Numbered from the stretch's first letter, positions 501 through 61,320 are shown. The stretch is DNA of 64,000 nucleotides from Psammoneis japonica (GCA_008632985.1 QPGO01000024.1:573848-637847); one strand, 5' to 3'. The notes: generated by a model not told the origin, from the letters alone. Numbers and translations are program-made.

Positions 501-844
501 TGCCACAATGTGCAGTCCAGCCCATAAATTTATGTTGAAAACAACACCGTCAGAGACGCCACCAATGTGACAGATCTCTTTCAAACTTTCCAACACATTG
601 TCACATCTAGAAGCATGCACTGTGGCATGGCCACGGGAACGCACTGAAGATGCCGCCACCGCATCATCATCGTGAAAGTGCCATTTGCGCTGGCCTCACG
701 CAAATTTGAATGAGGCCTGATTGGCGCAACTGCCATTTCAGTGTAGCCCCACGCAATGTCATGCACGTAGAATCCCACACAAGTTTTGTGAACGCATGGA
801 AGGACAGGCCAAGTGCAACCATTTTTTCAAATCTCCACAGTCCA

Positions 845-22100: not shown

Positions 22101-25100
22101 GCTGTCTCTCCTTTGCTGGCTTTGTGCCACAAAGGAGTTGGAAAAAGCACCTGCAGATGCTTGCACAAGCAGCGCCGGCACTTTTCTTCCACTCTTTTTG
22201 TTGTCAAGGGGGGGAGGGGGAAGCTGGTGGGATGCACACTGCACAACTGGTCAAACCTTGCTTGCGTCCAAGCTGCTGGGCAGTGCAATCATGAGCAGTT
22301 GCTGGCCATTCAGAGCTTGTTTGACAAGCACAAAGTGGCATCAGCAGCATTGGCAAACTTGTTTCTGCAGCATTGTCAACAGAGATTTGTTGGATGAGCA
22401 AGCTTCCATGAAACTGGAAATCTTGTGTGACAAGCCTTTTTGACAGAAGCTTTTGCTGCTGGGGCCCATCGTTTTCAACACACTGCTGGGAGACAAAGTC
22501 TGGACAGCTGTCTTGTGTGCATGCCAGCTCATTTGCAGGTGCTGGCTCAAAGCCCTGACACCCAGCTTGGATGTGGGAAACACAGGTGGCACATCTGCCA
22601 CAGTTCTGGCTGAGCCATCTCTGCTCTGGTGCTGACATTTGGGCAGCTCCCAATGACCAAGTGTGTGCAACAGTCTCCTCATGCCCTGGAAGCACACTCA
22701 ACTGTGCTCAGCAGCATGAAACATGAAAAGAGCATCAAAACACCAACAAATGCTGTCTTTTTTGAAAAGTCAGAGTGTTGCAGGAACAGATGGGTGCTGC
22801 CTGTTGATCCATGTGTGCTGGCTGAGCACACTGTTGGTTGTCAAAGGAACTGCTTGCCTTCTGTTTTTCCTTTGGCTGTTCTTCCAGAAAATGCAGCAAA
22901 AAGAAGAGATGGCATCAGTCTGTGGCTTTGGAGTTGCAGGTTGGATTTCAAGAGAAGGCATCTGCTGCACCAGCAGAGCCACCTCCACTCTGCAGCTCAT
23001 GCTCAGATTGTCCCCAACAACAAGCAATGGAGCACACATGGCAGCCTTGCCCCTTTGGTCCTTGCAGTGCTCTCAACTGCAGCCTGCATTTTGTTGTGTG
23101 TGCCCAAACAACTGCACACCCAAAAATGACAAACAAACTGGCAGGCTGGTGGCACACAAACTGTTGATCTTTGGCAGATGGACAGATCAACCTCTAGAGG
23201 TCCCCCCACATGGCCACACATTTGCAAGGGTCCAAAAGCCCAAGTTGAAGTGTGCACCAAAAGTGCCAGGCCCCTGCAGTGCACAGGCAGTTGCTTTGTT
23301 TTCAAGCTGCCACAAAGTGCCACAAAAACATTTTTCTCAGCTTTTGAAGCACCTCATCAGATGCCATTCACAGGGTCATGTGCAGCCCCTGCACAGCACA
23401 ATCTTTGGATGGAATGAAAGGGGAAAAAGCATGGCCAGCTCTGAAACAAAACACAAAGATTGTGGCCAGCCATGGCAACAAAGCAGGGCAGGGGAGATGG
23501 CTGCACCAGCTCCGAACATCAAGCACTGCTGCTGCAGGTTTTGCAGCCCATGCTGATGGCATCACATTTGCCAATGCCATTGAGCAACTCCCTGGAGAGG
23601 TCAAAGGCCAGCTTGTTTGGAAAGGAGTTTGCAAGCTGCAGCTTGTTATGGTCATTCTGGCTGACATGCAAAAAGTGGTGGCAGGACATCTCAGCTTCAC
23701 CGTTGTCAAAATTTAAAAAAAAAACCTTGAGTGCCAAGAACAAGCAAGGTGGTGTGCTGTTTGTTCAATCCATTGTTGCCAACATGATGCCATCTCAACA
23801 AAGATGGCAAGAGGTGGCTGGGATTTCCTTCAAGAATTCTTTCAGCTGTCCTGCTCTGGTCTGCCATGCTGTTAACTTGGGAGGGGGAGAAACTCAAAGA
23901 AATGCAAAACATGTTGGGAGCAAATTGAATTTGATGAAGCAAAAGGGGGTGGCAAGAGAGGCAGTGCTCACACTTTGCACCAAGCAAAAGTGTTTGGCTT
24001 GCAACTCACAGGAGCTCTAAAAACATTCACTGCTGGAGCAGCCACCTCTTTGAATGATTTTATCACACCCAGCTAAATGTTTTTGCTTGGTTGAGCACAA
24101 GAGCATGGCTCTCCCAGCAAATTACAATCAAAATGAATGAGGTGCCTTCCCTTTCATCAAATTTAATTTGCTGCTGACACACCTTGTGTTTCTCCAAGTT
24201 TCTGTCCAGAAGCCAACCACAGTGTTTGGACAGAAGCCAATGCATGAAATCCACAAAAAGCCCATGCCTTGAGACATTGTTTGTGTTGTTGGTGTGTGTT
24301 GGTGTGACCTTTTTGGTGGTGACAGTCAAATGAAACCTTGCTTGTTGGCAGAGAAGGCACATTTCATCTGAAATTTGACAATGCAAATTGAGGCCTCCTG
24401 CTGCCTGTTTTTCAAGCCATTTGTCAGGGCCACAATGAGCCTCATCTTGCTGAATTGCAGAATCCAAAAATGCCAAATGAGTTGGCCCTTGGCCTTTGAT
24501 TTGACCCATGTGTCAGTGTGACAAGGATTGAATGTGATGCCATCACTTCAGAATGTGAAATCCACAGTTGTGTTTGTTGTTTGGAGCTGGTGTTGCTGTT
24601 GTCTCCCATGTTTCATGGTGGTGATTCATTTGAAAACAAGTGCTGCACAGGTTGCCTTCATGTGGCAGAAGAAAAGGGGCTGTCAAAGCTTTGTGTGTGC
24701 ACTTGGCTCTTGCCCCAGAATTCTCCTTCTTCTGCTGTGCAATGATGTTTTTTGTTGAGGTTCTCAAATAAATTGGTGCAATGAAATGCTGAGAGAGGCA
24801 GTGGCACTCAACCACGTGACATCGGGGTGGGCACAGCATGCCGAGTCGACAGTGAGGCCAAAGATGGCAGAAATGCATTCTGTCCGTACATCCAAAATTA
24901 AGATTTTGTTGACTACTTCACTTTGATTGTGTTGCATGCCTTGGGTTAGAAAAGTTGCTGTGCATGAGAACGTGTCGGTCGTCAGTGCGCAGATTCGACT
25001 GCAAACGTTGGAGTGACAATGTGCTGCAACTCCACCGCGTCGTGTGGTGGACAACCAAGCACTGTTGGTGCGACTTGAGAGAATGCGAACGATTGACGAG

Positions 25101-25140
25101 GCATGCACCTGTGTCTACCATGCATGTTGATGTTGCAAAA
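19120..25140. mobile_element. TpA/CpG-depleted block; decayed repeat or transposon-derived DNA of unidentified family
   Basis: Same dinucleotide signature as the recognisable retroelement remnants; no intact ORF; family not recognised. Confidence 0.5.
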
Positions 25141-27117: not shown

Positions 27118-27609
27118 TACTGCTGTGTTTCATAAGCTGACAACAACATGCCAATCCTCTTACGAGCACTCCATACCACACGCAGATGATGATTCTTACA
27201 TCATGCTGTCGCAACACAACGCGCAACGCCCGCTTGGTGGTATGGTTTGGTCTCGATTTTCGCGGCGCGCCCTCGGATTTTTGAAATTGTATGCAATATA
27301 TAGTGTTTAAAATACTTTCAATACTATATATATCTTGAACATTATTCACCGATTGAATGTCACAAGAGTATGCAATATTCTTCATTTTTGAATAAATAAT
27401 ATAAGAAAAATGGAACTGCCATCCTCGTGGCATGGCCCCATCATTCATTCTTTGCCTCGCTTTACAGTACAGTACCGCCGCATTCCTACAGTACAGCACT
27501 GGCGCGCCCTTACATTTTGAATTTAAAAATAATGTTATTTAGACCGGAATATTTGGAATAAAGTATGCACCTGAACATCTCGTAACCTTACGATTATTAT
27601 ATTTTTAAG

Positions 27610-29090
27610 AACATGTGCGAAAAGTGCACTGCTTTTGTCCTCGCACACACGCGGCGCCTCCACCGGCACCTGCGCTGGAGACATCACCTTTTCTCGCTGC
27701 TGCGCCGAACATCCTGCTGTGCCTTTTTTTGTGTTTGCAATGGAGGGTCAAAACATCACAGAGATCAAATGGAAGTGAGGCTCTGGTTTGGTTGGTGAGA
27801 GCCAAGCCAAACAGCCAACTCTCCAAATCCAAGGACAAGCGATCACGCACCAGCAGCAGCGGCATTGAGCAGACACTCCTCAAATCACCCCCAGAGGCAG
27901 GGTGATCTCATGAGAGCATGCTGGGTCCACACTCAAACCCCCATTCTTGCACTGCAGCTTTTTCCAGGTGCATTGCCCTCATCAATTCAGGTGTTTTTCG
28001 TGCGTCAGACGTGATCTCTTCAAAGAACCTGTGAGAAACTCAGCTCCATGCCTGCTTGCACTAAAGATTTTGTCATCAGTGCTGCAGCTGCCAAGAGAAA
28101 GTCTTGTCATGTGACACTCATTGATCAGTTGCATGGAGTGTTTTGATTTTCTCTCTCATGCAGTCAGAGAGCACACTCCAGCATTCTGCGTGTTTCCACA
28201 CAACTTGTTGGGCTCACCTGCCAAAGCATTCTGCATTCCATCATTCTCCTGAGTCCATGGTTTGCTGACTTGCTGCACCCCCTTGGAAATTTGTCTGCAA
28301 GATGCACCACAAATGAGTCTAATTTCTTGCTTTTGCAGGTTTGGCACCTTTGCATCATTCAGGTGCTGGCCTTGATGATGGGCTCTCAGTCATCCTCTCT
28401 TTTGTTGTGCACCACCAGTGCACGACTTGTCACAGTCAAAACACTTGGCTTGTTGCAAAACACCACACATCTTTCTGCACTCACTGCCACAGACATGTCT
28501 CCCACTGACCCTCTGGAGGAGGCTGCACTGCAGTTGCATGGCAGATCCGTGCAATCTCTTGAGACCAAATGGTCCTCAAGTTTCTGACTCAAAAGTCACT
28601 TTGAAAGATCTCCAGCAGGTTTGAGAATTTGTTGCAGCACATTGAAAACTGAAGCCAAGACAGTCCATGTTTAATGCACAGCTGTTTCAGATGAACAGGG
28701 ATTGGTGTTTCCCAAAAATTGGTCATCCCCAAAAATGCACAGGATTTGCCTTTTGTTTTGGCCCTCATCGTCAGGTTTCCCAGTTTCCAAGTCCTTCATG
28801 GCCTCTGCAGCACCATCCAGAACCTCTCCAAGCATTGAAAATTCATCTGGTGTGATTTTAGCCTTGCACAGGGCTTTCACATGCTCTGGATGTGAATCGT
28901 CAATTGGCGTCTCCTCCGCTTCTGATGTCCTCATTGTCAACAGCCAGTCATTTCATCGCCCCAGACGCAATCGCTTTGAAACATGCCTCAGCACTCACGC
29001 TCCCTTTGTTGAGACATTTCAGTTGTTGACCCGCTTTCAAATGCACGCGAAAGAACAGATCGTCATCATCTGACCAATGCAACTCCACAT
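27610..29090. mobile_element. TpA/CpG-depleted block; decayed coding-like sequence on the minus strand, family unknown
   Basis: Dinucleotide signature; broken protein-like frames on the minus strand (e.g. 28671-28940). Confidence 0.45.
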
Positions 29091-29464
29091 CCAGGTAGGG
29101 GTGACTTAACTGTTATCGGTGCAGCACTCTACACACGCTTTAGGACCTCCCACGGCACTTCCTAACTTCAGTGAACAGAGATTCTTTGTTTTGCATCCAG
29201 GTTTTGCATCCAGCTAAAGGGATATCTAATTTTATACTGCAAAGGGACTAGAATATCCTTTGTGTGTTGTATTCTTGTGCACGAGGAGAGTGCGCTAGTG
29301 CTGCTCTTCCATTTTCTGTTCGTCCTTCCCTAGAAAGACCTTCTCGTTACTTTATGGACACTTCATTCTTTGCCAACGGACTCAATGAAGTCTCCGCTAG
29401 CGAATATGACGTAGGTACGCAGACGGAGAAAAGCTTCGAAAATTCCAAAACCGCTTGCTATAAT

Positions 29465-30715: not shown

Positions 30716-33599
30716 GTCTTCAAACAACAAAGGGCTGCCGTAACAGAGTGAAGATGCGGTCGATGATCGATGCAGAATTCACAATGCCGATGCCTCATGC
30801 TGAATGCTCGCTCGCATCCGCCGATGCTCCAGCCAGATTAGACCGCGCGCTCCCTGCGCCAAAAAATGACTCCACTTCTGCGCCTACGTCATCAGCTGAC
30901 GTCAAGCTCTTTTGCGTGTGCGGGCGGCGGGCGTGCGTGCGTGTACACCACCATCGTTTCTACGTACAGCATTCTCTTCTTTTCTGACCCCAGGAAACAA
31001 AAAGTGCTCTCAAGAGAGTTGTTTGTCTTCTTGGTGGTCCACTGTTCAGTGCTTTGGCCAGGTCACAAAGGCAGATGTGCACTGCAACTGCAGGCACTGT
31101 GATGAGGCAGAAGCTGGCAGTCGGGTGCTGTGCCAAGCCACCAAGCACCAGCCCACGAGTGGCTCGGTTTGCGCTGCTCAGCCCAGGGCTGCAGCACCAT
31201 TCTTCATGTGGCTGGTGCACCCCTCGCAATGAGCAGCACTTGGTGTGTTCTCACTGCCATCAAAATCCACTCTGCTGTGTGGGTTTTCCAGAACAAGGAA
31301 CCCAAGTCCTTTTGCCTGGAGAGGCCTTCTTTTTGAGAATGTGCTCACCCAGCTTTGCTGCTGCATGGCACACAACAGGGTGCACTGTCCCCTCTGTGCA
31401 GCTTGTTCCATCAACTGGCTTGTGCACAGTGCTTCCTCCAAGTCCATGCCAAGTGCTGCAAATGGCGCCATGCCTTTTGCAGGTCAGCAGCTGGAGTGCA
31501 TGATGCCAGTGGAGCCTTGGCAAGCAGGCATTGCACACATCAGCTGCAAAGTCATTGTTGCCACACCATCCATGCACCCTTTCTGCATTGTTGTCCATGT
31601 CAGCCTCAGCTTTGACAATGCTGACAGTTGCACCACCATGTTTGCCCTGCTTTGCTTGTTGCAATCTGCTTTGCTTGGTGCCATGTCTGCGCTTTTGGCG
31701 ATGCATGCAGTGCAGTGCATTTTGAGGTGCCAGCACTCTCACTCTGCACTTGGCTTTAAAGGCTCTTTGTTCTCCATGGCACTTTTGCTGCAACCACCTC
31801 CCTGAGTCAAGATGGAGCAACTTTTGCCAAGGGATTGCTCTTCAGAGCATGTGTCACTCAGGAGGTGGAGCAGCATTTGTGCCATGCCGCAATTTTGTGA
31901 GCACAATGCAGCACCTCAACTGGCCTGCACAGAGCTTCACACATGCTCACAAAGGCAATTGGCAACAGCGCCAGTTCTCAATTGTTGCTTTTTCAGCAAT
32001 GGCCAATGACTCCTGGGGAGGGGGGGGGGGCAGGATGTCACCTCTGTTCTTGTTCAGCTTTGTTCTGCATCTTTGAGCCTCAGGAGAGTGTGGTTTGCTC
32101 ATGATTTAGCAATGATGCCCAGCTTGTGGGCAGAGTGCATTTTTCTGGTGCTCTGGCACTCTCTGTGAGCCACTCCAGCTTGTTTCTGGCTGAGTCCAGG
32201 CCTGTGGCATTGCTCTTGTTGCACAAGTCATCTCCAAACAGATTGGCAGAGCCCTTGCTGGAGCCATCTGCACTGACTCTGTGGGCACACTTGTGAGGTC
32301 TGCAGCATGTCTTCCAGAGCCGCACCTGGAGCAGCGCAGCTCACTGTTGTGTCATTTGCCTTGGTGCAGTGCTCCTTCCCAAGAGGTGTGCTAAAAAGAA
32401 AAAGCTTGTCAGCTCCTCAACTGCACTTGCTTCAGACCTTTTGACTTGGACAAGCTCTTGAGAAAGAATGAAAGGCATGAGGTGCTGCTGTCCTTCTTGT
32501 CTTTTTGGGGTCGTGCACTTTGTGCACTCTTGATGGCTCTCATGGGGCTGTGCTTCTCTCTCCTTTTTGAGTGTCTGCACAATGGCAAGTGGCCTTTTCT
32601 TTTCCATGTTGGTGCAAGGCTTGCCCACCCTTGTGTGCTCAACAGTGCACACAGCTCAGCCCACAGGGCACAGCTAGATCCAAAACAATTGCAGTGATTG
32701 TCTTTTCCCGAGGTGATCATCAGAGTCATTGATTTTTGTTTCTGATGTTCCTTTTTCAAGAAGAGCATTGAGAGGAAGCAAGAACACCAATTTTTTAAGA
32801 GGAGTCAACAACACTGGCTGATCTTTCTCTCTTGCTCTTTTTTGTTTGCCCATCATGACAACATCTTCTTTGTGGCCCACAGAGCTGACAGACATCCGAG
32901 ATGGGGAGTGCACTCCCTTGTGTCGGACAGACTGGCATAGACAGCATGAGAGATCGATGATCTCTCCTTTGCTCACTTTCTTTCTCATTGGCACACGATT
33001 GTCATCTGTCCAGACATCGTTAGATGTCCGATGCCTAGTCTGTAGAGCATCACATGGCAGGTGTCAAAAGCTGCAAGTGTGTTCAGTTGCAAGTGCAGCA
33101 TCCTGGGGAACCAGTGCATGAAGGGTGCAGAATCAAAAAAGAATTCCTTCTTGCACGCTCACATTGTGCTTGGTGCTGCTCTAAACAAGAAGGGAGAGAG
33201 AGAGAGAGCACAGCAAAAAAGTGTGAAACAAAAAGAGAGACAGAAAGTGGGCAGTGGGTGATGAGTGCCAACCTCTTTTTTTGTGCAAGAGAACACCACC
33301 AATGTGGCTGTTGCAAAAAGCCTGTTGGCACCATGCAGCTCCAGCTCCTCCACAAAAAAAGAAAGATGGGGCCAAATTTTCTCAGCAGAGGGCAGAGGCA
33401 GCAATGCCAAAGCCAGAACAAGTGCAAAAGCAAGAACTTTTCATCAGACAGGAGGGAAATCAAAGCAATTGGGTGTTGCATCACCAAGTTGCTCAGTTCA
33501 AAAGACTGCCACTGGCAGATGATTGTCTTTGACTGTTGCCATCACTGTGGATCCTTTTCAATGACATGAGTTGTCATCTCTCCAACGTGGGGTCATTGG

Positions 33600-36200
33600 T
33601 GTCTTTTCAGCACTGCTTGTGCTGCAATTGAAATTGGTCTGGCCAATGCTGTCAAAAAGTCTGGTGATCTTCTGCCAGGCCTCAATTTTTGTGTCAGCCA
33701 AGGTTTTGAGCCATGGTTGATTTCTGCTGACATCCTGAATGATGGACTCTCATTTTCCAGACACTTTTTCTGCACCAAACCAATGACTGAGACTTCTGGA
33801 GTTGAGCTTGGCTCCCAAGCTGCACACAAGTGCAAGCTGGCTTGGCAAACACTCTGTGCACAAGAGCAGCTCTTTGAAACCACACAGTGACACAGCCACA
33901 ACTTCAAGAAGCTGCTCTCTTGTCACTCACTTGCTGCCAGGCTGCAGCAGATGCCAAGCTGCCTTTTCATCAGGCACGGCACTCTCTTGGCACCCAAGTG
34001 CACCATGCTCCTTGTGGCAACTCAGCACTGGCTGCATGCATTGGGCAGCACCTTGAGCATCCAGTTTGTCACTCCACCCATGAACCTCAGCTGGCTGCTT
34101 CTGTGCACAGTTTGTTTTTGCAGATTCTTTCAGTGAGCACAAACCCAGGATGTTTTGGCCACTCTCTTGGCCAACCAAAAGCACTGCAAATGGCCAGCTT
34201 GCTGTGATGCCATGCACATGCTTCCATCAATTTTTTGGGCTGCACAGCAGCACAGTGCTTCTTCTGCAAATTGTTGTTTGCACATGGATTTTAATGCCAT
34301 GATGGAGCACCACACTGCCCTTCTTGAGCTCAACAAGGAACACACCCCAGAGATCCTCACCCAAGCTGACTTGAGCAGTTGCAGAGTTGTGACTCCCTTG
34401 CACCAATTTGCTGGCTCTGCTTTCTTGACAAAGCTGATGGATGGTTCCAGCCAGGTGTTGATGACATTTGCAAGTCTGCTGGCTTGAGTGCAGCATCATC
34501 CTGGGCCATGATGCAAGGAGAGCAAGCACTGTGGGGACTTTTGCTCACCGGCCCAAATGGTGCATGAGAAAGTTTGAGCAATCAGGACAACTCCATGAGC
34601 TCAGCACATTTGGCAAAGTCATCAAGCACTGCATGATGCCACAGCATTGCAGCCACACTGGCAGTGCAATCTCAAACAAGATGGCACCCATTGATCTTTG
34701 AAGTGCTGCAATGGCTCACCACACACCACACCTGTTCTGTGACACTTGTGTTTGACACACTCATTGTGTGGTGTCTGGCAACTCAATCTAGAGGATGTTT
34801 TGTGCCCTGGTGGCTGTGCTGGGCTGCTGCATTTTTGTGATGGGGGGGGTCCCCCAAATCTTCTCACGCCATTTTTCTGGTGGTTGATGATCCCATGCCA
34901 CATGGTGCAAAACCTCAATTTGGCATCAATCTGGGTTGTGCAGTTGTCTTGAAGGTGCAACATGCTCTCCAAGGGTGCCCCAAAGCTGGTGTTTTTTGGA
35001 AACAGGGTGTCAACAGCATCTTGCTGGATGCAACGACTCTTTTGTTCTATGATGATGCTCACAACAAGTGTGTGCTCATTCTGCTGCCTTTGATGGCAAG
35101 AAAATTCTCCTTCTGTGGAAGGTGGGTGATTTTTTCATCACATGTTTTGACAAATGTTGATTGCAATGGTGACATGTGATTGGGAGGAAAAAGCTCTCCA
35201 GCACCCTTCTGATGATTCTCCATCACCACTGAAGTGTCTTTGTCTGGAGATTTTCAACAATGGCCTCAATGTTCATCAGTGCAATGGCTTGATCAGTGCT
35301 GCATGCTGCAGCCACATTGACTGCATTTTTGTGTTGCATGGGTGGGAGAATCCAGCTGCAGGTGAGCCAACAATGGACTTCAAGGCAACTCCCACATTGG
35401 TCAAGTTCATTTCTGAATTGTGCACTGATGTTGCTTGGCCCCGCTGAAGATTGTGCATCACAATTGGAAAGTGATGAGTTGGCCCAGGCCCAGGCCCAGG
35501 CCCAGGCCCAAGGCTTTGTGGCTGTTGTGCCCTGCTTGGTGAGCTGTTGTGTGCTTGCATCATTTGTCATCTTGGTGCTGGACATGTTGCCACAACACTG
35601 TCCAATGTTTCCACTGCTCCAGCTCTTTCACATTGCAATGCTTTGCCCAGGCAGGTCCACCTCCTTGCCCCTTTGAATGCCCTGCAAAAAACTCAAATTC
35701 ACCAACTTCACCACAGCTGCACACACCCATCAGCTTCTGGCAATGACCTGCAGAGTTGTGTTGCTGCCCAGGACAGCATGGGCACACATCAGAAGGAGCA
35801 GTGACTTCATGCCAGTGCAAGATGCACAGTTCTTGGTCATGGTGACAAGTTCTGAGGAGATGGAATCTTGCGCACATCTGGTGTTGCAGCCAAGCACATC
35901 TTGTGTCTTTGTCATGTCCCTCACAAGTTGGGATTTTCTCTAGAGGGACATGCTCCCACACTCACCAACACCAAGTTGGTGGTCAAAACCATCAACCAGT
36001 CTGTGTCCCAGCTGGGCACTCCTTGTGCCACATTGATGCTCAACTCTTTGCAATTTAAGAGCAGAAAGAGGCTGGTGAGGTTGTCACTCAACATGTCTCT
36101 GTGGCATCATCAACTCAGCAATGACCTTTCCAATGCTTTGGGTTGGATGCTGCATGCCAGACATGTTTGGAGTGCTGTTGACAGCCCATTTTGTGGGTGC
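33600..36200 (+). mobile_element. Ty1/Copia (CoDi-like) pol remnant with RT and RNase H
   Basis: LKQDGT..CCNGS (~34671), VLKVQHALQGCPKAG..W (~34945), NGLNVHQ..HGW, GELLCACIICHL..GHVATTLS (~35538), DLSNALGWMLHARH (~36123); many stops and frameshifts; 5' limit approximate. Confidence 0.85.
35481..35510. repeat. (GGCCCA)5 microsatellite inside the Copia RT remnant
   Basis: Read directly from the sequence. Confidence 0.9.
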
Positions 36201-39200
36201 AGTGCTGCTGGCTGCACACTGCCCTTTGTTGTTTGTCATTTGTGCTGGGCCTGTTGTCATTGGAATTTTCACCCAGTCTGACTTTGTCATCACACTGTCT
36301 TTGGATGATCTGCATCATTCATGGTTGGGCATTCTTGCAGATCATGGTCAGATTAACCAGAAGCAATGGACAGACCACACCTTGGACAGAGATGAGTGCA
36401 GATTTCTTTTGAGCTGCTTCCTCTTCTCACTCTTTCTTGCTGTCACTCTTGATGCCACAGCCACCAGTTTGCAGAGAGCTTGCACACTTGTTGATCTTGC
36501 TGTCACTGCCATGTTGCTTGAGTTGCCAGCAGAGCTCCAGGAGAACACTTCCTGGGTGTGGGGGTTGTCTGAAAACTTGCTCTAATCACAACATGAGCAG
36601 CTCATGTCAGGGTCAAAGTGAGTGTGTGAGGCATCAACTGTGGCAACCACTTTTGTTTGATGTGCTTCAAGTGATCTGAGTCTTTCAGCTCATCATCTGC
36701 CAAGACAATGAAGTGAGCCATTGGCGCTGTTGTTGGAGCATGCACCCTGAAAAAAGCTTTCTGCACAATTGTTGCAATGCTTGCAACATGATCAATGGGG
36801 TCATGTGTCAATGGCAAGATGTGTTCCTTGATGAGGCACTTCCAAAGAAGGTGCACAACATTGTCCTTGCTTTGGGTGTGGCCAGTGTCATGAAAAAGTT
36901 GCAAGTTGAGAGTCTTGCCACTGCCATCAACTTGCAAGATGATGTGTCCATGGACTTGTGGGCCTCTGGATGACTGTTGTGCACATGAAACTTGATGTTG
37001 AGAGTGCAACAAGGGCATCAACAGCATCCTTTCCTCTGACAATTGGTGCCATGGTTGAGGTGTTCAAAAAAGTTTGATGTGCACACACAGAACAGCGTGC
37101 ACAATTCAACAACTTTTGCTTGCCCTGGCTCTGAGACTTTGGATTTTGATGGTCAGGCCTGGTGTCATCCTGGCTGCTTCTGGTTCTTTGCAACCACCCA
37201 GGAGCATGTGCTTGTTGGTGCTTGTGCAAGATGCCAACCAGAGATTGCAGGCCAATCTCAACAAATTTGAGCAACTGATTTCTCAAATGATGACAAGGCA
37301 AGTGTTTGGGAGAATCTCAGCAACACACACCACTGTTCTGTTTTCAAACCAATCATTTTGTTTCACCTGCATGTCAGCTTCAGTTGGGCAAAAATGGAAG
37401 CAAGTTCTGCAAGGCAAGAAAATGAGCAAGAGCCATCATGAAAGCTGCCAACCAAGACAAAGAAAGGGCACGCTGATTGTCTGTTCCATCTCTCATGGCA
37501 TCACTGCACATCTCCAGCAACAGAGCATTGTCCCCACTGCTCACATCAAACAGAATTAGCATGTCAAGCATGGGCAGGAAGCAATGAGTGATGAACCAAA
37601 ATCTGGATTGAGTGTCCACAAAACACCTCTAACTTGCAGGGGACCAATTGAAAGTTGTTGATCACAGAACATGCCAAGGATCAGTCTCCCAATTTGATGA
37701 CTTTGGAGCAGGTTGCAAACAAGGTGTGCTGGTCAGTGGAGCATGAGTTTTTGTGTGTCTTGACATCTTCTTTTTGTTCATGTCATCTCCAGCAGGTGGA
37801 AAGTCAGGAAGCAGATCCAAAATTTGTTGCACCAACTTCTTGCCTTGAGTCTTGTCTTCTGTTTGCTGCAAAATCTTTTCTGCACTGGCATCCCTCCCTT
37901 TGTTGTTTGACCATCCATGTTTTGTTTGCTGGAGCAGCAATCTTGTTGAGCATGTCATCCTTTGGAGTGTTTGGCTCTTGAGAACAGGGTGGACTTCTCA
38001 AAGGGATTTTTTGGACTGCTTCTTTTTTGCCATTGATTCTTCCTTTTGTGCCAAATGCACTTTCTCTTGACCTTCCCTCTTGGTCAAGTCACCATGACAC
38101 TGTGGCACAAGCCATGCAAAAATTCCTGCATCTGTTCCTTTTGCACCTTCTTCCCATTAAGAATTTTTCAATCCTTGTTCACTCCAATGTGCACAAAAGG
38201 AACAATTGAGTTGCATGCAGTGCGCACCTCCTGCTTGTTGTGACTGACAAAAAGGGACACAACATCTCTTGACTTTGTCGTGGAATGGTGCATCGGGAGT
38301 GACTTGTTTCAATGGGTGGCTGACACACTGAATCCAGTGATGTGATCATTTGACTGCAAGTTGTGTGCCCTAAATTGGCTCACAAGATGGCAAAGCAGTT
38401 GAATGCCACCATGAAAGCACAAAAATTTGCAAGCATGTCAACTCCATTGTTGTTGCAATTGATGAATTTAGATCATTTTTTGTTGCTTGCAGCACAAAAA
38501 GTTTCTTTGTCACTTGGTTTGGACAAGATGGACCGTGCACTGCTGCGTCACTTCAACACTGTTTTTGCATGTTGCATTTTGCTTGTTCAACAAACAGATG
38601 TGTGAGGAATTCTGTTAGACACCACTTTTCAGCATTGTTTCATTGGGTTGTTGGTGTGACATGAATCTTGTTGTGCATCATTGTGCCCCTGTTTTTCTTC
38701 ACAATGTTGCAATTTCATGAAAACAACAGGTGTGTTGATGGACGCAGCTGACCCAAGCACACAACAGCATGCAAAGCATTTGGTGCATTGTTTTTGTCCT
38801 CATCAATTTCACACAATGCACTGCATCATTGACCCTTTGCTTCTGTCACTTGGAACAAACAACCAAAAAACCAACAACACAAGGTGCACTGTCGTCAACA
38901 GCAAAAAAATCTACATTGACATGCTGCCACCATGTTGAATGCAGAGCATTGTGTTGCCACCCCACCATCACCCAGCAGGTGGTCCTCCACATTGTCATCC
39001 CATGCATGTTCTCTTTTTTGGGTTCTTTCCACAGCGATTCTGTCATTTGTTCATTTTGTTGCTTCTTTCCTTTGCCGTCAGCTGATTTTTTGTTTTGCTG
39101 TCAAACAACGGATCACACCTTTTCTCAAGCAGTTTTCTGCCAGTCAGGGCATCTTCAACAATGGCCATTGCAAGCAGCTTGCTCATCTTTTCATCACAAG

Positions 39201-41299
39201 TGAGTTGGCTTGGGGTGGAAAAACCTGTGCTCACTCTCAATCAGGGACAGTCATGCCATTGACCCGGACAACATCAATCAGCACAAAAGAATTTTTGGGC
39301 AATTCGGCCCAGCTCCTCTTCTTGTTTTTCAGGCATTTCACCAACTGTCACCATCATTTGCAGGACAAAGTGTGCTTCTGTCATGTGCATGATGTTTGAA
39401 ACCATCATGCCAAATGCACCACAAGGTGACCACCCAGCATGTCAACTGCAAAATGTGCATTGTCAAAAACACACTGACCAAATGCTTGCACCTCTGAGCA
39501 TTTTGGCATGTGTTTTCATTTGTCATGTGAGAGCAGAAGAAAGATTGGTTTCTGCCTTTTTTTGCTGTCACTGTCTGGTGTTTTCCATTGCTTTGCACAT
39601 TGACACCAGCGGCTGTTGTCTTCATCAGGGTCTAGACCCACAATGCAGAGAGAGAGAGCAACTTGATGAAAGCATGATTGACAAACTCACAAGCACAAAG
39701 AGGATCATCCAGCAGGCATGAAAGGACTGGGCAGTTTTGCAAAATGGCATTTCCATCTTGCTTTGGCTCACAACTCACAACTCTGCCACAAATCCTTTCT
39801 TGATGAAGAATGTCACCCAAAAGGAAACTGCAATGTGTTGTGGCTCTCACAAACCCATGATCATTTCCAATTGTTGCACAAGCAATGGGTGGATTGGATT
39901 GGCAGTGAAGCAGTCTGCAAAGTGCAGTCTTTACAATGCAGCAATGATTGGCAATGACAATGCAGCCAGTCTTGTTTGTCTGCATTTGGAATGAAACCAA
40001 ATGGGTGCCAATGACAACAACAGCAGCAGCAAGCACCTTCTCAAATTCTGGCAAGTGAGTGCATGAGTGGCTGCTCCATCTCAAGCAGATTGACAGCATT
40101 GACACTGGTCTTGTCAGAATGATCAACAAGGAGGGCATGAAAATTGGGTGCCATTGCCTGAGCATTGGAGCCACTCTCTCCATCCCCCATGTTTTGACTT
40201 TGAGGCAAGAATTGCCAGCCACCTTGCATTCTTGCTTGGAAGCGAATGTCACACCACTGCCAATGGGAGCATCAGAATGTCCCTGGGAGGAGGCACATGT
40301 GGAAACCACATGTCATCTGGATTTGCCAGCTGCTTTGAAAGATCACAAAAGACTGGCTCTGTGAAAAGATCCCACAGAGTTTCAGCAAAGCCACAGACTG
40401 GGAATGGTGTGGGAAACAACAGTGTTTGGGTCCATTCTTCTGTTGGTTGATGGAGTTGCTGTGCTCCATCACAGCAGTCACAGTGCAGGGAAGAGGGACA
40501 TTGCAAAAAGCTCAAGAAGCTGCTTTGTGGCCATGGCAGCAGCAGCGGAATGCTTTGTCAAATCCAATTGCTTCTTGGCATGCTTTTGGCAAACTGTTCT
40601 TGCTGCTTTGTCTGTGAAGTTGTTGTCACAACAGGCCAATGACAAAGATGCAAAAGGCAAGCCACAGACATGATGCTGGGTGAACACACAGGGGGGACAT
40701 CAAAGTGCTCATTAGAGGCAAGATTGCGTGCCAGCCCCAGTGGGTTCTTGGGATCAAAGGAGGTGTTGGCAACCAAGTCATTGTTGGGAGAAGGAGGAGA
40801 TGTTGCAGCTGCCCAACAAGAAATTGCAGCAGGGCCCCAGGCACTGTCAAGAGAGGCAGCAGCACTGAGCTCAGGAACACCAAGAACAGCACTTTTGTTG
40901 CCAAGGGCAGAAATGCCATTGTCCACAAACAACACAAATTGACAAGCATTCACAGTGGCTGCCTTGGCAGTGGCAGAAAAATGTCCAGAGCATCAGACAG
41001 ATGAAGGGCATGCACTGTTTGCAACTGCAGTGTTGCTGTCAGCAGTGTCATTGTCCAAATGTGGTGGAAGGAGGTGGAGATCTGGATTTGAGATTTGAGT
41101 GGACCTTGGGAGGGAAGGTTTGGGTGCGTTGTTGCCAAAACCAAGCACAGATGGCTCAGCATCAAATTTGCAAATGGCAACATCTTCAGAAGAGGAAAAG
41201 AAACAGCAGCTGGTGTTGTAAAGAAGCACCCTCCTTCTCACTGCAGGGTGCACACTTCCAGAGATGCTGGGCAATGTTGGAAAGGAAGTCAACTCACCG

Positions 41300-44200
41300 C
41301 CAGTGGGGACATCAGGGTCAATCAGAAAAAGACCCAACAGATGAGACAGAGACAGCATGATGGGGAAGAAAAAAAGCAACCAAAATCCAACCAGACAAAG
41401 ATGCTGCATCTGTTCTTGAAGATGTCTGTGTTCCAAGAGAAGGCAGGGAAGCAGAAGTGGTGCAGCAACACAAAAGGTGGTGCTCCATGTGATTTTCCAA
41501 GTCAAAACCAAGTTGTCCAACTGGTCAGACCAAGTCCAACATCACAGTTGGTGGCAAGATGACAAGGACAAAGACCATGTTTGGAACCAAACCCAGAACA
41601 TTTGTGCTGGGAACACACAAGACCTTCCAACTGCACAATTGCCTGTGTGGCCTGACAGAGAAAGTTGCACACACTGATCAGGTGACAAAACAGCACAATG
41701 CAAATGTGAATCACACCACAGGGCACAAAATGGATGGTGCAGGGCCAGAGCTGGAGAATGCCGGCCAACTGTCAAACACGTTGGAAGAAACTTGTGACTT
41801 GAGCAGGCACCTGACCTTTGCAGAAAAGGCATTTTCTGACAGAGAACAAGCTGCCTGGGAGGGCATGGACACTTGGAACTCTTGCAGATCCAAATGCATG
41901 TGAGCCAGAGGGCTTGGATCTAAGAATGAGTCCATGGTTGCAGGGTGTCCACTGAAGCTGGCAACAGCTGAAAGGCACGCACAATTGCAGTTGGAAGGAT
42001 CACCACCACATGATGTTCCATTGTGATGGTTCCACCAAGGGCCGTGTTCGCTGTTGTTGCTGATTGCCATGACCAATCTGACAAGTGCTTGACCAATTGA
42101 GATGTGTGTGCTCAAAAGGATTGAACAAAGAAGACAAGACAAAGAAAGCAGCTGCCAAGAGATGGGCAAAGAGGAGAGGATCTTGATGAAAGATGACATT
42201 TTCTTGCACCATGCCCACGCATCAGCATCTGCCATCTGCAATGTTGGTGCTTCGTGCTTGCTGGGAAGACTGCAACAAACAATCTGTGGCTTGTGCAGAT
42301 GAGGCTGAGTGCAAGATGCTGTCAAAGAGCTGGTCCTGATCAGTCAGTCTCAATTCAGGCAAGCTTTCAATGACACTTCTGGGTCAATCATGATTGGATT
42401 GGCTGCATCCAAGAATGCGCTGAAAAAGCTTCAGGAGCCGGGGCAGTGCAGGGATCAACATGCACAACAGAACAGGATCCACATGCTGCTTGGGTTGTGA
42501 GGGAAGCAAGTGCAGAGCAAGTGGGACCCACCCTTGCAATTGGAGGCAAACAAGGGAAGGTGTGGGACTTTGCTGCAAAGTGCACAGCTGTTGACCTTGA
42601 GAGTGCTGACCAGACTGTTGGTTGGAACTGATTTTGCCCCATTGAGGTGGCAGTGCTGTGACAAGACAACAAGCCACATTCCATCATCATTTTGTCTGGG
42701 CAATGTTCCACTGCAAACACAAACAGCAGCAGCTCCATCCACCAATGCTGAAGAAAATGAGATGGGACATCGTCAAAATCAAACAATTCATGAATGCCAT
42801 TGCAGTCAGCAAGCCAAGTGAACTCTCAACCAAACAATGACTTCTTCTGCTTGGGGAACACCCAGCGGCCAACTGATGTCTTGCCTGCACAAGAGTGGCA
42901 TGATTTTTCTGATGCAGTGGTGGCACGCACAACAAGAAGACTGTTGGTCTCAGAGGAATGCCCCCGGCCATTGCAGATCAAAAAAACATGGACCACCTTG
43001 AATTTCAGCAAGCTCAGCTGCTTCAGCCAAGCAAACATTGGGATTGGCCTGGAGCAGGGGGCTGCTCCCACTGCATCTTTGCTCCAATTGGTCTTGACAT
43101 GGAATTGCCAGCTGCAATCTGGTCAAGCTAAAACCAGACCCAACAAAACATCCTGCCAGAATCCAGCAAAGAATGCTCATTTGACATCTGGTTCCATGGC
43201 ACCAGGTCCTGGTTGTTTTGCTTGAAGCTGTCTAAAAGGAGTCAATCTCACTTCAAATCATTCTTTCCAGTTTTGGCAAAAACTGAATGCAGCAATCAAC
43301 ATGCAAAGGCTGCCCCTTGTTTTGGGCAGAGGCAAGGATTGGAGTGCATCAAGCTTGGTGTGAGCTGGAGAGCTCCCATCCTCACAGATGTCAAGCCCTG
43401 CAAATTCCACTGTTGGAGACAACCACTTGCATTTCTTGAGCTTGGTGGTGATGAAGTGGTGCTGGAGCACCTTGAGAACAACCTCAAAGTGTGGGAATGG
43501 CCATTTTGTCAAGGGCACAAAATGTGTGCAGTCATCATGATGACTTTGGAGCTGCAAGGTTGAATGACAAAGCAGACACCAATGCCATCACAATCAAGAT
43601 CTGGGTGCTTGTCAAAGAATTGAGCTTCTTGTTCTTTTTGCAATGCGGCCATCATGGCAACAAAAATTGCACGTGCATTGACAAAGCCCATTGGCATCAC
43701 ATTCCAGCAGCTTTTGCCTTTGGGAGCAAAAAACGCCATCTTTGCTCTTGGTGCCTTCTCAAGCAACACTTGCCAATGACCACAGTCAAGATCAAAACTG
43801 AGAAAAACTTGGCTTGTGGCAGGATGTCTTGCACCACATTGTCAAACCAAGGTGTGTGGAAGTTGAAAGGATGAGTGACCTGATTCAACCTGTGGCAAGA
43901 GACACAAAGGCACCAAATGCATTGGTGCCATGGCATGTTTTCTTGATGTGGTTTTGCAGCCAGAATGACAAGGGCTCCCCAAGGGCTCTCGGCATCACAA
44001 AAAATCAAATCATTGTTTTCAAGATGATCCAAGAGCTTTGCCATGGTGCAAGACTTGTGGGGGGCACATTGAGGCAGCTTGCAACACACTGGAACTACAT
44101 CCCTGGTGTCAATCTGACACAAGAAACCTGGATGTGTTTTCTCAGCCCTTCTTCATGAAATGCAGCCACAATCTTTGAACATGACTTCCATGCCAACTGG

Positions 44201-47200
44201 CAGGTCCAGGCAATCACCCAGCTCCATGTGATGTGATGGCAACTTTGGGCACCAGATCTTCTCAGTGGTGCGATCAGCACCTTGTAAATTTGGTGATGGC
44301 TTGGATGGAAACAAAGGTTTGAGCACATCAGTTGCTGGACTGGTTTGATCAGCAACAAGGACAGATGAAGATGCAGATGTGACAAACTTGCAATGTGATC
44401 TTGTGGAATCAATGAGAAATGCAGACGGCATGGCCCACTGCCACAGCAGGCCTTGGAATGTCAGCATTGCACTTGCACATGGATTTGACAAGCAAAACAA
44501 AGATTCCAAGGTCAGACCAGAGAACAACTCTCATTCATGCAGCTCAATCCCAGGGACAAAGTTGTGCTCTGGATTTGGTGCAAGCAGGTCCTCACGTTGA
44601 GCCAGCATGAAGAACTCCAACAAATTGTCAAAGACAGCACATGCTTGGTTGACCAAAAGTTGCCATTCAGCTGCCAGTGCCACAGAGACCTTGACTTCAA
44701 CCTGAGCTTGTTCAATGGCTTCAGATGCAGGTTTCTACCATGTCAAGTCAAGCAGGCAGGGAAGAAGCATGAGCACCTTGTGAGCCTGCACCTCCCATCA
44801 AAGGCACTTGGTCTGCTTGATGCAGGATTTGACAACAAACAGGGAATGCATGACCAAGGCATTGGCACAACAGCATGTCTTCTGACTCACTGTGCATGAA
44901 GAGAATGCTGTTGGTGGCTTGCACGAGTGGCAAACTTAAAATTGTGTTGGCAGATGCTGATTTAACTGACAAACCAAATGAAGCCATCACATTCTGGGCA
45001 CTCACCTTGAAAGGGGTTTTGTGGGCAATGACTGTGACAACTCAGGTCACATCACCATTTTCATTGACACCTCCAACAGAAAACTCAAGGTTGTCCATGT
45101 CCTTGATGTGCTTGAAGGTTTCTACAATGTCAGGATTTGCCTTGCAAATGCTCTTGTGGTGCACTGGACATCCCAGGCTGAGTCCAGTGCAAGTGTCAAC
45201 CATGGCGGTGTTCAGGGTGGCTTGGTGCTTGGTGCCAACTGGGAAACAAATGTGAGCACAACTCAGCTTGCTCTCCTGATCAAATCCTGGGCACTTTTGC
45301 TGATGCTTCCACAACTTGAAAATCAATCAGCAATGGGAAACAAATGAAATCAGCGCTGCCTGCACCTTGTCACAACGTGTCACCTGGTGGTTGTGGGGGA
45401 CAAACCAGAGCAGTGTGACCCCATTTGTCATGCAACAGCAACAAGCAGCACACCGTTTGAGTTGCATTTGAAGTTGATGGGTTGGCAATGGACACAACAA
45501 GATCTGCCATCTGTTTGGAGGGGTGTCCATCTTTCTCCCATGAGGAATGAAAAAACATGCAGTGCTGCTGGAAGCTTGTGCAGCATTGTCTAAAGATCCA
45601 TCTTGTGACAGAGCGCTGAGAGGAGGAATGCCCCACGGATGTTTGGCTGGAGTCAGAGAGGAAGCATTTGCTTGTGCTGCCAAATTGCCATGATGAGGAC
45701 AACTGTGCCAACAATGAAAACACTCCTTGTGGAATGACTTGTGACCTGTGCATCCCCAGCACTCAACAAGAGGAAATGATGTGATGGGGCAGCTCATTGC
45801 ATGGCATCCTCTGCTGCACTGAGGAGCACAGACGTGAGCATGGAAATTTGACACAGATCATCTGCATTGTCAATGTTGTCCATGCCCTTGCTTTGAACTT
45901 GTGTTTGGCCACTCTGCACTTGACATGTGACAGGGTCCTTGGGATGACAATCATGTTCTGAGTTTGGGACAGTGGCAAAGGCTTGGGCACCTGCATCAAT
46001 CAGATGGGAGCAAGAGCCTTGTGCACTGGAACGCAATGCAATGCCCCAAGCTCTGTTCACCTCTCAGCGCACTTGCAAAATCTGGCACTCTTGAGTGTTG
46101 GTCTTGTTGGGTGGTCTTGCAGGATCACTGAACAGAGGATCAGCCACTTCTCCTTGATCCATTGAGTTCTGATCCAAAGCAGAGTGGAAAACTTGTGGCA
46201 GGTCAAGAGTGAGCTGGCAATCTGGCACAACATGCTGACCCGCTTTCAGAAAACAAGGCAGAAATCTTCTGTGTTGCAGTGGTGTGGCTGTCCATCCACC
46301 ATTGCAGTTTGTTCTAAGTGCAAAACAGTGTCCACAATCTGAGCATCCATGACAGTGGCTCCACTGAGGAACTCCACTTTAGTGCGCTCTCACAAGAGAC
46401 GCAGTTTGCAGTCAAAGAATTGCTCACTTGAAACAAAGCTTGGCCAGCAGGATGGTTCAGAATGCCCAGTGTCGGAAAGATGCTGCCAAGATGGGCCACA
46501 CAAGCATTCAATGTGGCTTGAGGATCACACAAAACTGCTGCTGTCAATGCTGGAAGCAGCAGCTCTGATCCATCATCTAGATGAGTGGGGTCGTTTATGA
46601 CAGGCCAGGTGTTGGGAGCTGAGCGGCCACTGGGAATGTTTTGGCACTCAAGCAAGCAGTGCTGAGGACATCAGGGGCCCAATTGAAAGCCAGAGCGGCA
46701 TCAATTGTGAGGTCAAAAGTGCAGAACTTTGCATTGTGGCAAACATTCTGGACAAATGGGGGAGGAGGTCCCTGCCGGATTGGGGGTTGCTGGGAAGTTG
46801 AGTGCGCCACCCCTTTCTGTGCAGATCATTGGGCTGCTGAACAGAAGCATCCCAGCTGGGGCTCCTGGCACAGTGACAGGAACATCCAGCCCAGCTGCAT
46901 TGTCACAAAGGCATCATCTGAGTGCGCTGTTGCCTCACCAGACAAGTGATTGATGGAAAGCATGAACTCAGAACATTGTGTTTGGTGGTGAGTGCAGGTG
47001 TGCATGGAGTTGCATTGATGCTGCTGACCATCAAACAACAGGAGTGCTATCTCCACAGAGTTCTCTGGCACTGCAGTGCAAAGATTCGCAAGTTTCTGTG
47101 GCAGGTTGAAGGTGCACAAGCCCCGCTGCACCTGTTCTTGGGTGATGACGGCGAGGGGGTCATTGCGACAACGGCCACCTCCCCTCCCTGCACAAAGTTG

Positions 47201-47341
47201 AGCCGACATCACAACAAGGCAAACAAGCAGAAAAGGTCGGGGTTCGACTTGCAGGGTGGGATGTAAAGACAACTGCAACACAGGAAGTCCTGTCTCTCGC
47301 ACGTCATAATGGATGACTGACTGACGGACGCTGTCGTTACA
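41300..47341 (-). mobile_element. Ty3/gypsy LTR retrotransposon remnant (gag knuckle, protease, RT, RNase H, probable integrase)
   Basis: Domain order on the minus strand: CWGC..H..CP (~45700), MVDTCTG protease (~45190), SPWGALVILAAKP..CLCVSCHRLN, AFFAPKG..VMPMGFVNA, KLKKCKW..VEFAG (43300-44100), EFTWLADC..QHWWMELL (~42750); candidate LTR start TGTAAC at 47341; 3' limit approximate. Confidence 0.88.
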
Positions 47342-49497: not shown

Positions 49498-49543
49498 NNN
49501 NNNNNNNNNNNNNNNNNNNNNNNNNNNNNNNNNNNNNNNNNNN
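49498..49543. other. Assembly gap (46 N)
   Basis: Run of N. Confidence 1.
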
Positions 49544-59419: not shown

Positions 59420-61320
59420 TAGAAGGGGGGCTTGCAAACACATCTTGTGGACTTCACTCCTTGCTGGGCTGCAGCACATGGCAAAGCAACAACAGCTTGG
59501 CTGCAGAGGAGTTCTCTGGGGGCATGGCAATTTTGGTGGTGGCACACCCTTTTACTCTGTGTGCCTGGCAGGCAACAAAAAAATTGAGTGTGATGCAAAA
59601 ACGCTTCTGTGAAAATTGTGAGCCACCAGCTCATTCCAGAAAAAGTGGGGTCATGCAAATTGGGGGTCGTGCCAAGTTCCCATTTGCTTGAATTTTGCAT
59701 CACATCAAAACCACTGCTGCTCACATTGTGGATTGCACAAGTCAGGCCACAATGCCGCATCTTCCACAAGCAATGTCATCATGTCGTGCCACACTGCACC
59801 CAGCTGGAGGTCAGCCAACATGTGGATGTGCTGTGTGCACTGATGGTCTGGGTGTTCCTCTGAAAAGTGCCTTGGTCAAGAGCCACGTCCTCCTTGGATT
59901 GTGCTTCCCAGGTGCACCCAGGCAGTGCTGTGCTGCTGCACACAAGAGGGGGCCAGTGCGCTGCATTGCCACATTGCCAGCAGGCACATGCTGTGCTTGT
60001 GCACAGGAAACTGCGCACCCTCATCAGTCAGGAATCTCCCTCATTGTCAGTGTTGGAGTCACACACGTGCAGCTTGGGGCTTCCATTGCATGTGCACGCC
60101 ACTCTCTCCACCAGGAAATGTGGATGTTTGCAGCACACTTGCTGAAAACCAGCCAACAATTGGGTTGTGCTGACCTGGTTGCAAGTCTGGCCAAAGAATC
60201 TGAACAAGATTTTGCCCCTCTGCTGAGCTCACTTGGGTCCAGCCAGAACATCCAAAAGCAAAAGTGCTTTGTTTCACAAATGTGCACAACTCTCATTGCA
60301 GCTTGGGCAGGGTGCTCTTCTTTGAACTTGGGAGATGCCAAAGCTGCCATTCCACATGCTCTCACCAAACACTTGGGCCATTGTTCTGCAACTGCGTGCT
60401 TTCCACAGGCTTGCAGTCAACAGCAAACTTTCTCCATGTTTCCCAGGGGATCACATCTCCTCCAGGTTCTTTGTGTGCTTCAAAGCAGTGGGGTCTCTGC
60501 TCATGACAAGCTCTGGTGCAGACCGCAGCAGGCACAACTCTGGCACAGACCACAGCAGGCACAATGGAGGCAATTGTTGTGGTGAGAGAAGGGGAGAGAA
60601 TCATTGTGGTGAGAGAAGGGGAGGGGGGGGGGGGGGCTTGTGTTTCTCACCATCAGCACGCTGCTTGCTTGCAGACTTCTTTCTCCTCATCTGCTCTGCC
60701 ACAACATCTCTTTTCCTTCTCTTTGTGGTCTTTTCAAACTGCTGCTCCCTTGCTGGCCTTTTGCCACACTTCATGGCCCATTGCCACAATCTCATCTCAT
60801 TGTTGCACACCCTTGGCTGGAGAGTGAGCTTGAAGCTCAGCTCCTTGTCCTCCATGACAAACTTTCTTGTGCACAAAAGTGGATCTCTCGTGCTGGGCAC
60901 TTTGTGTCAGCTGCTGTTTGAGAACTTCTCTCTGGTCACACGGTGCCACATTCCAGCGCGTTTGTCACACAACAACACTTCCGTCATTTTTGGTGCTGGT
61001 TTCTCTGCTGGCTGTTGTGCCCGATGGCCAAGGCATGAGGGGCAGTGGCTGGAATGAAGGGGGGGGAGGGCAGCCCAGCTCTGAAGCTGTGCAGTCTTCC
61101 ACTGACCTGCCCCCCCCCCCCCCCACCTGAGACATCTTGATTGTGTGCACCCGCTGACCTCCTCTTCCTTTGCAGACAAGAATGGAAAATGAAGGCCTTG
61201 TCTGACAACAACCGCCCAACCTGTCACCTGTCATTCCCGTGTTGCTGTCGTTGTCAACAAGCACGAATTTTTTGTGTTTTTCATGTTCAATCTAGAAAGG
61301 CGGTTTTTCACAAAGTGTTG
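59420..61320. mobile_element. TpA/CpG-depleted block; decayed repeat of unidentified family with short internal duplications
   Basis: No TpA seen from 59555 to 61292; duplications gaccRcagcaggcacaa x2 (~60521, ~60548) and ttgtggtgagagaaggggag x2 (~60577, ~60604). Confidence 0.55.

Follow-up and report, generated by a model that had tools for sequence, protein, structure and literature searches.

A decayed retroelement in DNA poor in TA and CG

We analyzed a 64,000-nucleotide stretch of the genome of Psammoneis japonica, a probable diatom (GCA_008632985.1, QPGO01000024.1:573848-637847; hereafter the window), which carries the remains of a Ty3/gypsy-type retrotransposon inside a long block of DNA in which the dinucleotides TA and CG are nearly absent. 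A first-pass annotation of this DNA had recognized a gypsy reverse transcriptase (RT) at 43300-44120, and structure matches bear this out: the region encodes an RT on the minus strand, split over three reading frames (Table 1). Two minus-strand open reading frame (ORF) pieces, 43512-43841 and 43261-43587, matched the RT of Ty3 (4ol8; E=5.1e-8 and 4.2e-5) and that of cauliflower mosaic virus (CaMV; 8r0s, E=4.7e-8). These were the best matches among solved structures and correspond to an RT of the Ty3/gypsy-caulimovirus type; a PDB search with the first RT piece gave 0 matches. When we searched all six frames of 30900-47300, 19117-25116 and 59553-61293 against Pfam, the only match was to RVT_1 (E=3e-6), at 27.5 bits and thus under the cut-off of 29.6.

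A word-indexed homologue search with the RT ORF returned 51 candidates, none of them at E<=1e-3, and when the 110-aa middle RT piece was used in a full HMMER scan, 366 relatives were returned at that threshold, the longest pol among them being 1933 aa. All nine long or mid-sized relatives that we checked contain RVT_1 and RT_RNaseH_2, and the three longer than 1700 aa also carry the integrase zinc-binding domain Integrase_H2C2 downstream, as the Ty3/gypsy order has it. In the window, what can be aligned to the relatives is RT (44152-43261) followed by RNase H (43260-42544). The RNase H-like region is interrupted by TGA stops at 43260, 43179, 43125 (a conserved Arg column) and 42828. Upstream of the RT, a weak match to the N-terminal part of one relative may be a protease remnant. 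Neither Pfam searches in six frames nor alignment of the relatives revealed an integrase in the window element, and no flanking long terminal repeats (LTRs) were found, self-BLASTN of the window yielding three matches, all within 216-1658; possible reasons are truncation of the copy and decay of its LTRs past detection. Judged from its sequence, the element is a dead, decayed Ty3/gypsy-type retrotransposon on the minus strand, with RT followed by RNase H.

A Y-x-D-D catalytic box is not present. At the corresponding site (43536-43544), intact relatives of the clade (P0005, P0007, P0019 and others) read V-I-V-D-D, and the clade also has MPMG where MPFG is usual; the V-I-V-D-D box belongs to the clade and does not reflect damage. 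One candidate for a former YxDD, an HHDD at 43542, was rejected as the product of an out-of-frame alignment of distant relatives. The true frame of the window reads SKVIM-DD there, and the column was dropped.

Dinucleotide counts across the 64-kb window revealed five blocks that are nearly without TA and CG and in which TG and CA are doubled (Table 1). In the largest of these, which contains the retroelement, TG (1908) and CA (1904) are equal as well as doubled, about 4% of the expected TA and 10% of the expected CG are left, and GC content is still ~48%. Observed/expected (o/e) ratios for TA of 0.0-0.07 place the erasure in the blocks near saturation. Between the blocks lie ordinary eukaryotic genes, encoding UTP20, a Na/H exchanger, a frataxin-like protein, a RING protein and a NUDIX-HAD protein, in which TA o/e is 0.5-0.8 and that of CG is close to 1. 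The protein-atlas cluster nearest to the exchanger comes mostly from Bacillariophyta (score 0.98), and the reading of the host as a probable diatom rests on this. In the host ORFs of the window, Tyr makes up 1.0-2.4% of residues, and CGN accounts for between 13/18 and 27/34 of Arg codons. Depletion is thus limited to blocks with sharp TA borders, adjoining genes are spared, and a mobile element was identified in one block only.

Two further features of the window were recorded. A tandem duplication at 844-1658 (~346 bases, 83.9% identity) spans the right border of the block at the left end, and an assembly gap of 46 N occupies 49498-49543.

Table 1. Parts of the retroelement and blocks depleted of TA and CG, in window coordinates
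Feature	Coordinates	Strand	Remarks
Weak match to N-terminal part of relative P0040 (residues 15-95)	44165..44407	-	E=0.005
RT, first part, frame A (ORF 43700-44152)	43804..44152	-	contains SPWGALVILAAK and motif CLCVSCHRLN; alignment to relatives
Motif CLCVSCHRLN (ancestral clade motif R-L-C-V-S-Y-R-x-L-N)	43883..43912	-	R>C (TGC), Y>C (TGC), R>H (CAC)
RT, middle part, frame B	43538..43801	-	FDLDCGHWQV ... NVMPMGFVNA ... SSKVIM; RVT_1 match
RT, catalytic box and thumb, frame C	43261..43536	-	DDCTHF ... KLKKCKW ... VEFAGLDI; clade box V-I-V-D-D
RNase H-like region	42544..43260	-	aligns to RT_RNaseH parts of relatives
Weak match to P0019 between RNase H and integrase (residues 806-925)	41717..42084	-	E=1e-4
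Depleted block, largest, contains the retroelement	30965..47264		16.3 kb; TA 44 vs 1089 expected; CG 98 vs 950 expected
Depleted block, second	19117..25116		TA 20 vs 410 expected; CG 39 vs 341 expected
Depleted block, third	27606..29096		TA 5 vs 97 expected; CG 31 vs 87 expected
Depleted block, fourth	59553..61293		TA 1 vs 99 expected; CG 23 vs 118 expected
Depleted block, left end, continues into tandem repeat	1..1307		TA 6 vs 59 expected; CG 21 vs 106 expected

Fate of conserved tyrosine and arginine codons

The first-pass annotation had pointed to the peptide CLCVSCHRLN as an altered form of a canonical R-x-C-V-D-Y-R-x-L-N motif. The peptide is indeed encoded on the minus strand, and its changed codons are those claimed: TGC at 43912, TGC at 43897 and CAC at 43894. 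At these three columns, relatives with normal Tyr content read R in 38/39, Y in 37/43 (F in 5, L in 1) and R in 41/43 (H in 1, C in 1). The proposed canonical motif is accordingly right at its R, Y and R columns and wrong at D, where the ancestral residue of the clade is Ser (S in 32/43, D in 7/43).

To ask whether this pattern extends along the element, relatives were placed on the window by tblastn, and each window codon was compared with the residues aligned to it. Of 150 relatives we used the 99 that reached 150 aa in length and 2% in Tyr content, excluding 37 that were shorter and 14 under 2% Tyr (including the repetitive P0001). This gave 517 aligned codons and 197 conserved columns, those in which 8 or more relatives were aligned and 60% or more of them agreed. 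None of the eight conserved Tyr columns retains Tyr in the window; five have become TGY (Cys) and three CAY (His). Of the 13 conserved Arg columns only one retains Arg (CGT at 42927), the other 12 reading Cys (4), His (3), Trp (2), Gln (2) or a TGA stop (1). All other conserved columns are retained in 130 of 176 cases, among them Trp at 9/9, Lys at 8/8 and Met at 5/5. The difference in retention between Tyr plus Arg and the other columns is highly significant (Fisher p=1.9e-10), and, since Cys and His together make up 10.2% of aligned window codons, the probability of finding either at all eight Tyr columns by chance is ~1e-8.

Among the 66 changed conserved columns, 38 need a single step, either TA>TG/CA (14) or CG>TG/CA (24). 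In shuffled pairings, the mean was 8.7 single-step columns and the maximum 20, and 0 of 2000 shuffles reached 38. The result does not depend on the Tyr filter, as with 149 relatives and no filter we found transition products at 7/7 Tyr and 11/11 Arg columns.

Tyr is encoded by TAY codons only (Y, pyrimidine), so that every conserved Tyr marks an obligatory TA. It had been argued from the single motif Tyr that TA was lost and not absent in the ancestor, an argument that would fail if relatives carried Cys or His at such positions. Across the eight Tyr columns, the 99 relatives, all predicted proteins, read Y in 235 of 274 cells, F in 25, H in 1 and C in none, and the argument holds for every conserved Tyr of the element.

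We also looked at DNA. Relatives are encoded at 34 environmental loci (L001-L034), found with a search pattern that favored intact copies; three distant ones (L032-L034, 21-22% identity) were left out of codon counts, leaving 31 close loci. In the matched part, all 34 have an unremarkable composition (TA o/e 0.37-0.94, CG o/e 0.72-1.28), and none is TA-poor. The close loci contain 33.2 TA and 68.7 CG per kb, compared with 1.9 and 5.0 per kb in the window at 42544-44152 (3 TA and 8 CG in 1609 bases). At the eight Tyr columns they read TAY in 143 of 161 cells, TGY in none and CAY in one; at the 13 Arg columns they read CGN in 194 of 247 cells, AGR in 31 and other codons in 22. Because the relatives have TAY and CGN codons and normal TA and CG content, both dinucleotides are ancestral and were lost by transitions. 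The comparison shows, as read from sequence, that the 16.3-kb block around the element became TA- and CG-free by mutation and did not inherit this state.

A few of the environmental relatives themselves have TGA (2) or CAT (3) at two of the Arg columns, 43912 and 43894, a pattern that resembles CpG decay.

The library also contains four Tyr-free proteins (P0002, P0046, P0049 and P0082) with Cys or His at Tyr columns, in part not the same residue as in the window. At column 43897 the window reads C and P0002 H, and at column 43778 the window reads H and the other three proteins C. Different single-step products of one codon in independent copies are expected only if Tyr (TAY) was ancestral. Public protein sets include Tyr-free, Cys/His-rich predicted proteins that are gene calls on hypermutated copies of this family.

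These data leave little room for the idea that the lineage never had TA or CG, the element being an active one that avoids both dinucleotides under selection. Joint suppression of CpG and UpA in RNA viruses provides a precedent for such avoidance. However, Tyr cannot be encoded without TA, and the relatives' DNA reads TAY at the Tyr columns; the window shows the two single-transition products there and no conservative replacement such as Phe; the conserved Arg column at 43125 is now a TGA stop; and none of the related loci departs from ordinary TA and CG content. We regard avoidance as highly improbable.

We considered it equally improbable that the TA/CG-free state is an artefact of assembly or base calling, such as misread modified bases. 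The TA-free sequence recurs in contigs of one public run, X1 (word depth ~60), which may stem from the assembly's own source sample; over 2001 bases they differ from the window by 12 substitutions and 5 indels. Five of the substitutions set CG against TG/CA, and only one adds a TA, at an ambiguous site adjoining an indel. The single-base indels, at 43801, 43535, 44129, 42961 and 42928, do indicate that small errors or variants exist, and those at 43801 and 43535 fall exactly at the two frame changes in the RT, where the X1 copy reads RT in one frame. These frameshifts therefore do not go back to old damage but represent allelic differences or errors of assembly; the TGA stops, including that at the conserved Arg column 43125, are still present in the window. 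An artefact would also have to spare genes in the same window, which have normal TA and CG, to yield exactly the amino acids that real transitions within a coding sequence would give, and to account for Tyr-free relatives in an independent protein library.

Strands, flanking bases and block borders

On the coding strand, the reconstructed steps are TA>TG at 9 columns, TA>CA at 5, CG>TG at 11 and CG>CA at 13. Changes on both strands argue against editing of a sense RNA. Together, the codon data show which way the change ran, that it was restricted to TA and CG steps, and that it acted on both strands.

The strand data bear directly on whether the element was edited before it integrated, by an ADAR-like enzyme converting A to I in its genomic RNA or by a deaminase acting on cDNA. 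ADAR-type enzymes favor U before the edited A, as noted in the discussion of a preprint on the chlorarachniophyte alga Bigelowiella natans (Mettrop et al., bioRxiv 10.64898/2026.01.13.699255, 2026), and the retroelement is the only identified sequence in its block. But sense-RNA editing predicts only A>G on the coding strand, and hence Tyr>Cys, while three of the eight Tyr columns are His and 5 of the 14 TA changes are T>C on that strand. Nor would editing of one strand leave TG and CA equal in the block. The depleted DNA, at 16.3 kb, is far longer than the longest pol of the family could account for, its TA and CG borders are offset, and four other blocks with no detectable retroelement are in the same state. 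Editing before integration is, in our view, quite unlikely. It had also been proposed that TA was lost after insertion; the loss itself is firm, and its timing follows less directly, from the action on both strands, a block exceeding any pol, and the offset borders.

The TA that survive in the five blocks carry a signature of their neighbors (R, purine). Of 72, 46 are in YTAR, 25 in mixed and 1 in RTAY context, compared with 244, 772 and 408 of the 1424 TA in host DNA (p=1.3e-22). This excess of YTAR among survivors indicates that the mutator prefers T-A-Y. A two-strand additive model fits the counts if an A before a pyrimidine is changed ~3x faster, assuming ancestral contexts like those of host DNA. 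Survivors of CG show a different and weaker bias, with RCGY at 77 of 212 sites versus 440 of 1963 in host DNA (p=1.4e-5).

Flanking bases do not tell us which base of TpA is hit. The primary lesion might instead lie on the thymine, for instance an enzymatic modification that mispairs with G and gives T>C: A>G on one strand is T>C on the other in sequence, and a TAY rule is equally an RTA rule. No positive evidence for a thymine lesion emerged from our analysis, and the only published account, the B. natans preprint, proposes adenine deamination, in its main text also without proof. We consider a thymine lesion doubtful, if the least doubtful of the alternatives.

At most block borders, the TA-free zone extends 100-400 bp past the CG-free zone (near 19117-19248, 24815-25116, 27606-27706, 28898-29096 and 47087-47264); at 30963/30965 the two borders coincide. 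This offset has a bearing on whether one enzyme system erased both dinucleotides, such as an ADAT2-like deaminase acting on A and C in DNA. Such a system would explain why both are lost in the same blocks to near-equal completeness and why both losses are amino-to-keto deaminations ending in TG or CA, and ADAT2 enzymes that deaminate A and C are cited in the Results of the B. natans preprint. A single enzyme does not readily produce offset borders, however, nor flanking rules that differ, with YTAR spared for TA and RCGY enriched among CG survivors. Moreover, the Tyr-free protein P0002 covers 4 Arg columns and has kept Arg at 3 of them, and the CpG methylation of diatom transposons by DNMT5 (PMC9998398, as consulted in part) would alone suffice for CpG decay. 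The differing survivor bias and the retention of Arg in P0002 favor two processes, and we think a single enzyme unlikely.

We therefore favor change made in place on DNA, as suggested by the changes on both strands, the length of the block relative to any pol, the likeness of the four other blocks and the offset borders. Ancestral TAY (Tyr), CGN (Arg) and other TA and CG steps were turned into TG or CA by single transitions, probably on chromosomal DNA and by two co-located processes. The first would be a TpA-specific A:T>G:C hypermutation, running about three times faster where a pyrimidine follows the A, with enzymatic adenine deamination as its simplest chemistry; the second would be methyl-CpG decay of the ordinary kind. 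Silenced repeat DNA would be the target of both, and neighboring genes would be spared. We put the probability of the explanation as a whole, that is, a dead gypsy element, derived loss of TA and CG, and in-place TpA hypermutation together with methyl-CpG decay, at roughly 85%.

Several observations weigh against this explanation or narrow it. Of the 66 changed conserved columns, 28 need other changes (12 transversions, 8 other transitions and 8 multi-step), so that ordinary divergence is also present. The protein relatives are predicted proteins with normal Tyr and long ORFs, and the X1 contigs, given their possible origin, are not independent of the assembly. No Pfam family was found in six frames of blocks 19117-25116 and 59553-61293, and self-BLASTN of the window revealed no nucleotide repeats connecting the depleted blocks, so that within the window repeat status rests on one identified element. 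Three of the eight Tyr codons went to His despite a preceding pyrimidine, the slower context under the TAY rule; this is compatible with 3:1 odds and does not support them. Finally, adenine deamination is a chemical interpretation, and a change initiated at thymine would give the same sequence pattern.

Known hypermutation systems and what the pattern means

The closest process we know of is that described in B. natans, where integrated giant-virus and virophage DNA undergoes TpA>TpG/CpA hypermutation that was also seen de novo in mutation-accumulation lines (Mettrop et al.; the comparison rests on parts of the preprint, mainly its main text). In both cases the changes are TpA>TpG and TpA>CpA only, on both strands, and are confined to foreign DNA with sharp limits, leaving stretches poor in TpA and rich in CpA and TpG. 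TpA-poor genes in B. natans are enriched in RT and DDE domains, and the element here has an RT. The two cases differ in host, a chlorarachniophyte versus a probable diatom, and in target, viral DNA versus the retrotransposon identified here. They also differ in degree, with a TA o/e of 0.0-0.07 in the window blocks compared with 0.45 in the B. natans region of nucleocytoplasmic large DNA virus (NCLDV) origin. In addition, CG is lost here, and a flanking rule applies in which TAY is changed and YTAR spared; the terms "CpG", "context", "flanking" and "trinucleotide" do not occur in the main text of the preprint, its supplements lying outside that scope. Full-text literature searches found no report of TpA loss in diatoms, and the word "diatom" is likewise absent from that main text.

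Other systems share only some of these features. Repeat-induced point mutation (RIP), found in Neurospora and other ascomycetes, is likewise a transition hypermutation that kills mobile elements in place and leaves genes untouched. It changes CpA to TpA and raises AT content, and is thus opposite in direction to the pattern here, in which TA is destroyed and not created and GC content stays at ~48%. Many diatoms carry DNMT4 enzymes related to RID, and diatom transposons are CpG-methylated, as reported in the sections of PMC9998398 that we consulted. Decay of methyl-CpG would similarly produce CG>TG/CA, the change at 24 of the 66 changed conserved columns, with Arg going to Cys, His, Trp, Gln or stop, but it is unable to remove TA and so explains no more than half of the pattern. 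Retroelements are also inactivated by deaminase-made transitions in ADAR hyper-editing and APOBEC editing. These act, however, on one strand of RNA or cDNA with strand bias, whereas here both strands are affected about equally and whole blocks past the element are involved.

The likeness to B. natans raises the conjecture that diatoms and chlorarachniophytes, both members of the stramenopile-alveolate-Rhizaria (SAR) assemblage, share an enzyme dedicated to genome defense, a DNA adenine deaminase that reads 5'-T-A-Y-3', is targeted to silenced mobile DNA, and erases TA until Tyr codons and TAA/TAG stops are gone. We offer this tentatively, as something that may well prove wrong. If it were true, the system would mirror fungal RIP and amount to a naturally occurring A-to-G editor of DNA.

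Conserved tyrosines serve in this analysis as built-in markers of ancestral TA, since Tyr has no TA-free codon, and with them a compositional oddity becomes a polarized mutational event without the need for a sister copy. The copies that result escape Pfam and word-based searches, so repeat annotation in such genomes will miss them. Our data place TpA-specific A:T>G:C hypermutation in a probable diatom; going by the literature as we consulted it, the process had been measured only in 2026 and in one unrelated alga. Here it appears at saturation on a retrotransposon and with a flanking-base rule. If an enzyme is responsible, it would be a natural, sequence-specific A-to-G mutator of DNA and would represent a new class of transposon defense in a major group of phytoplankton.

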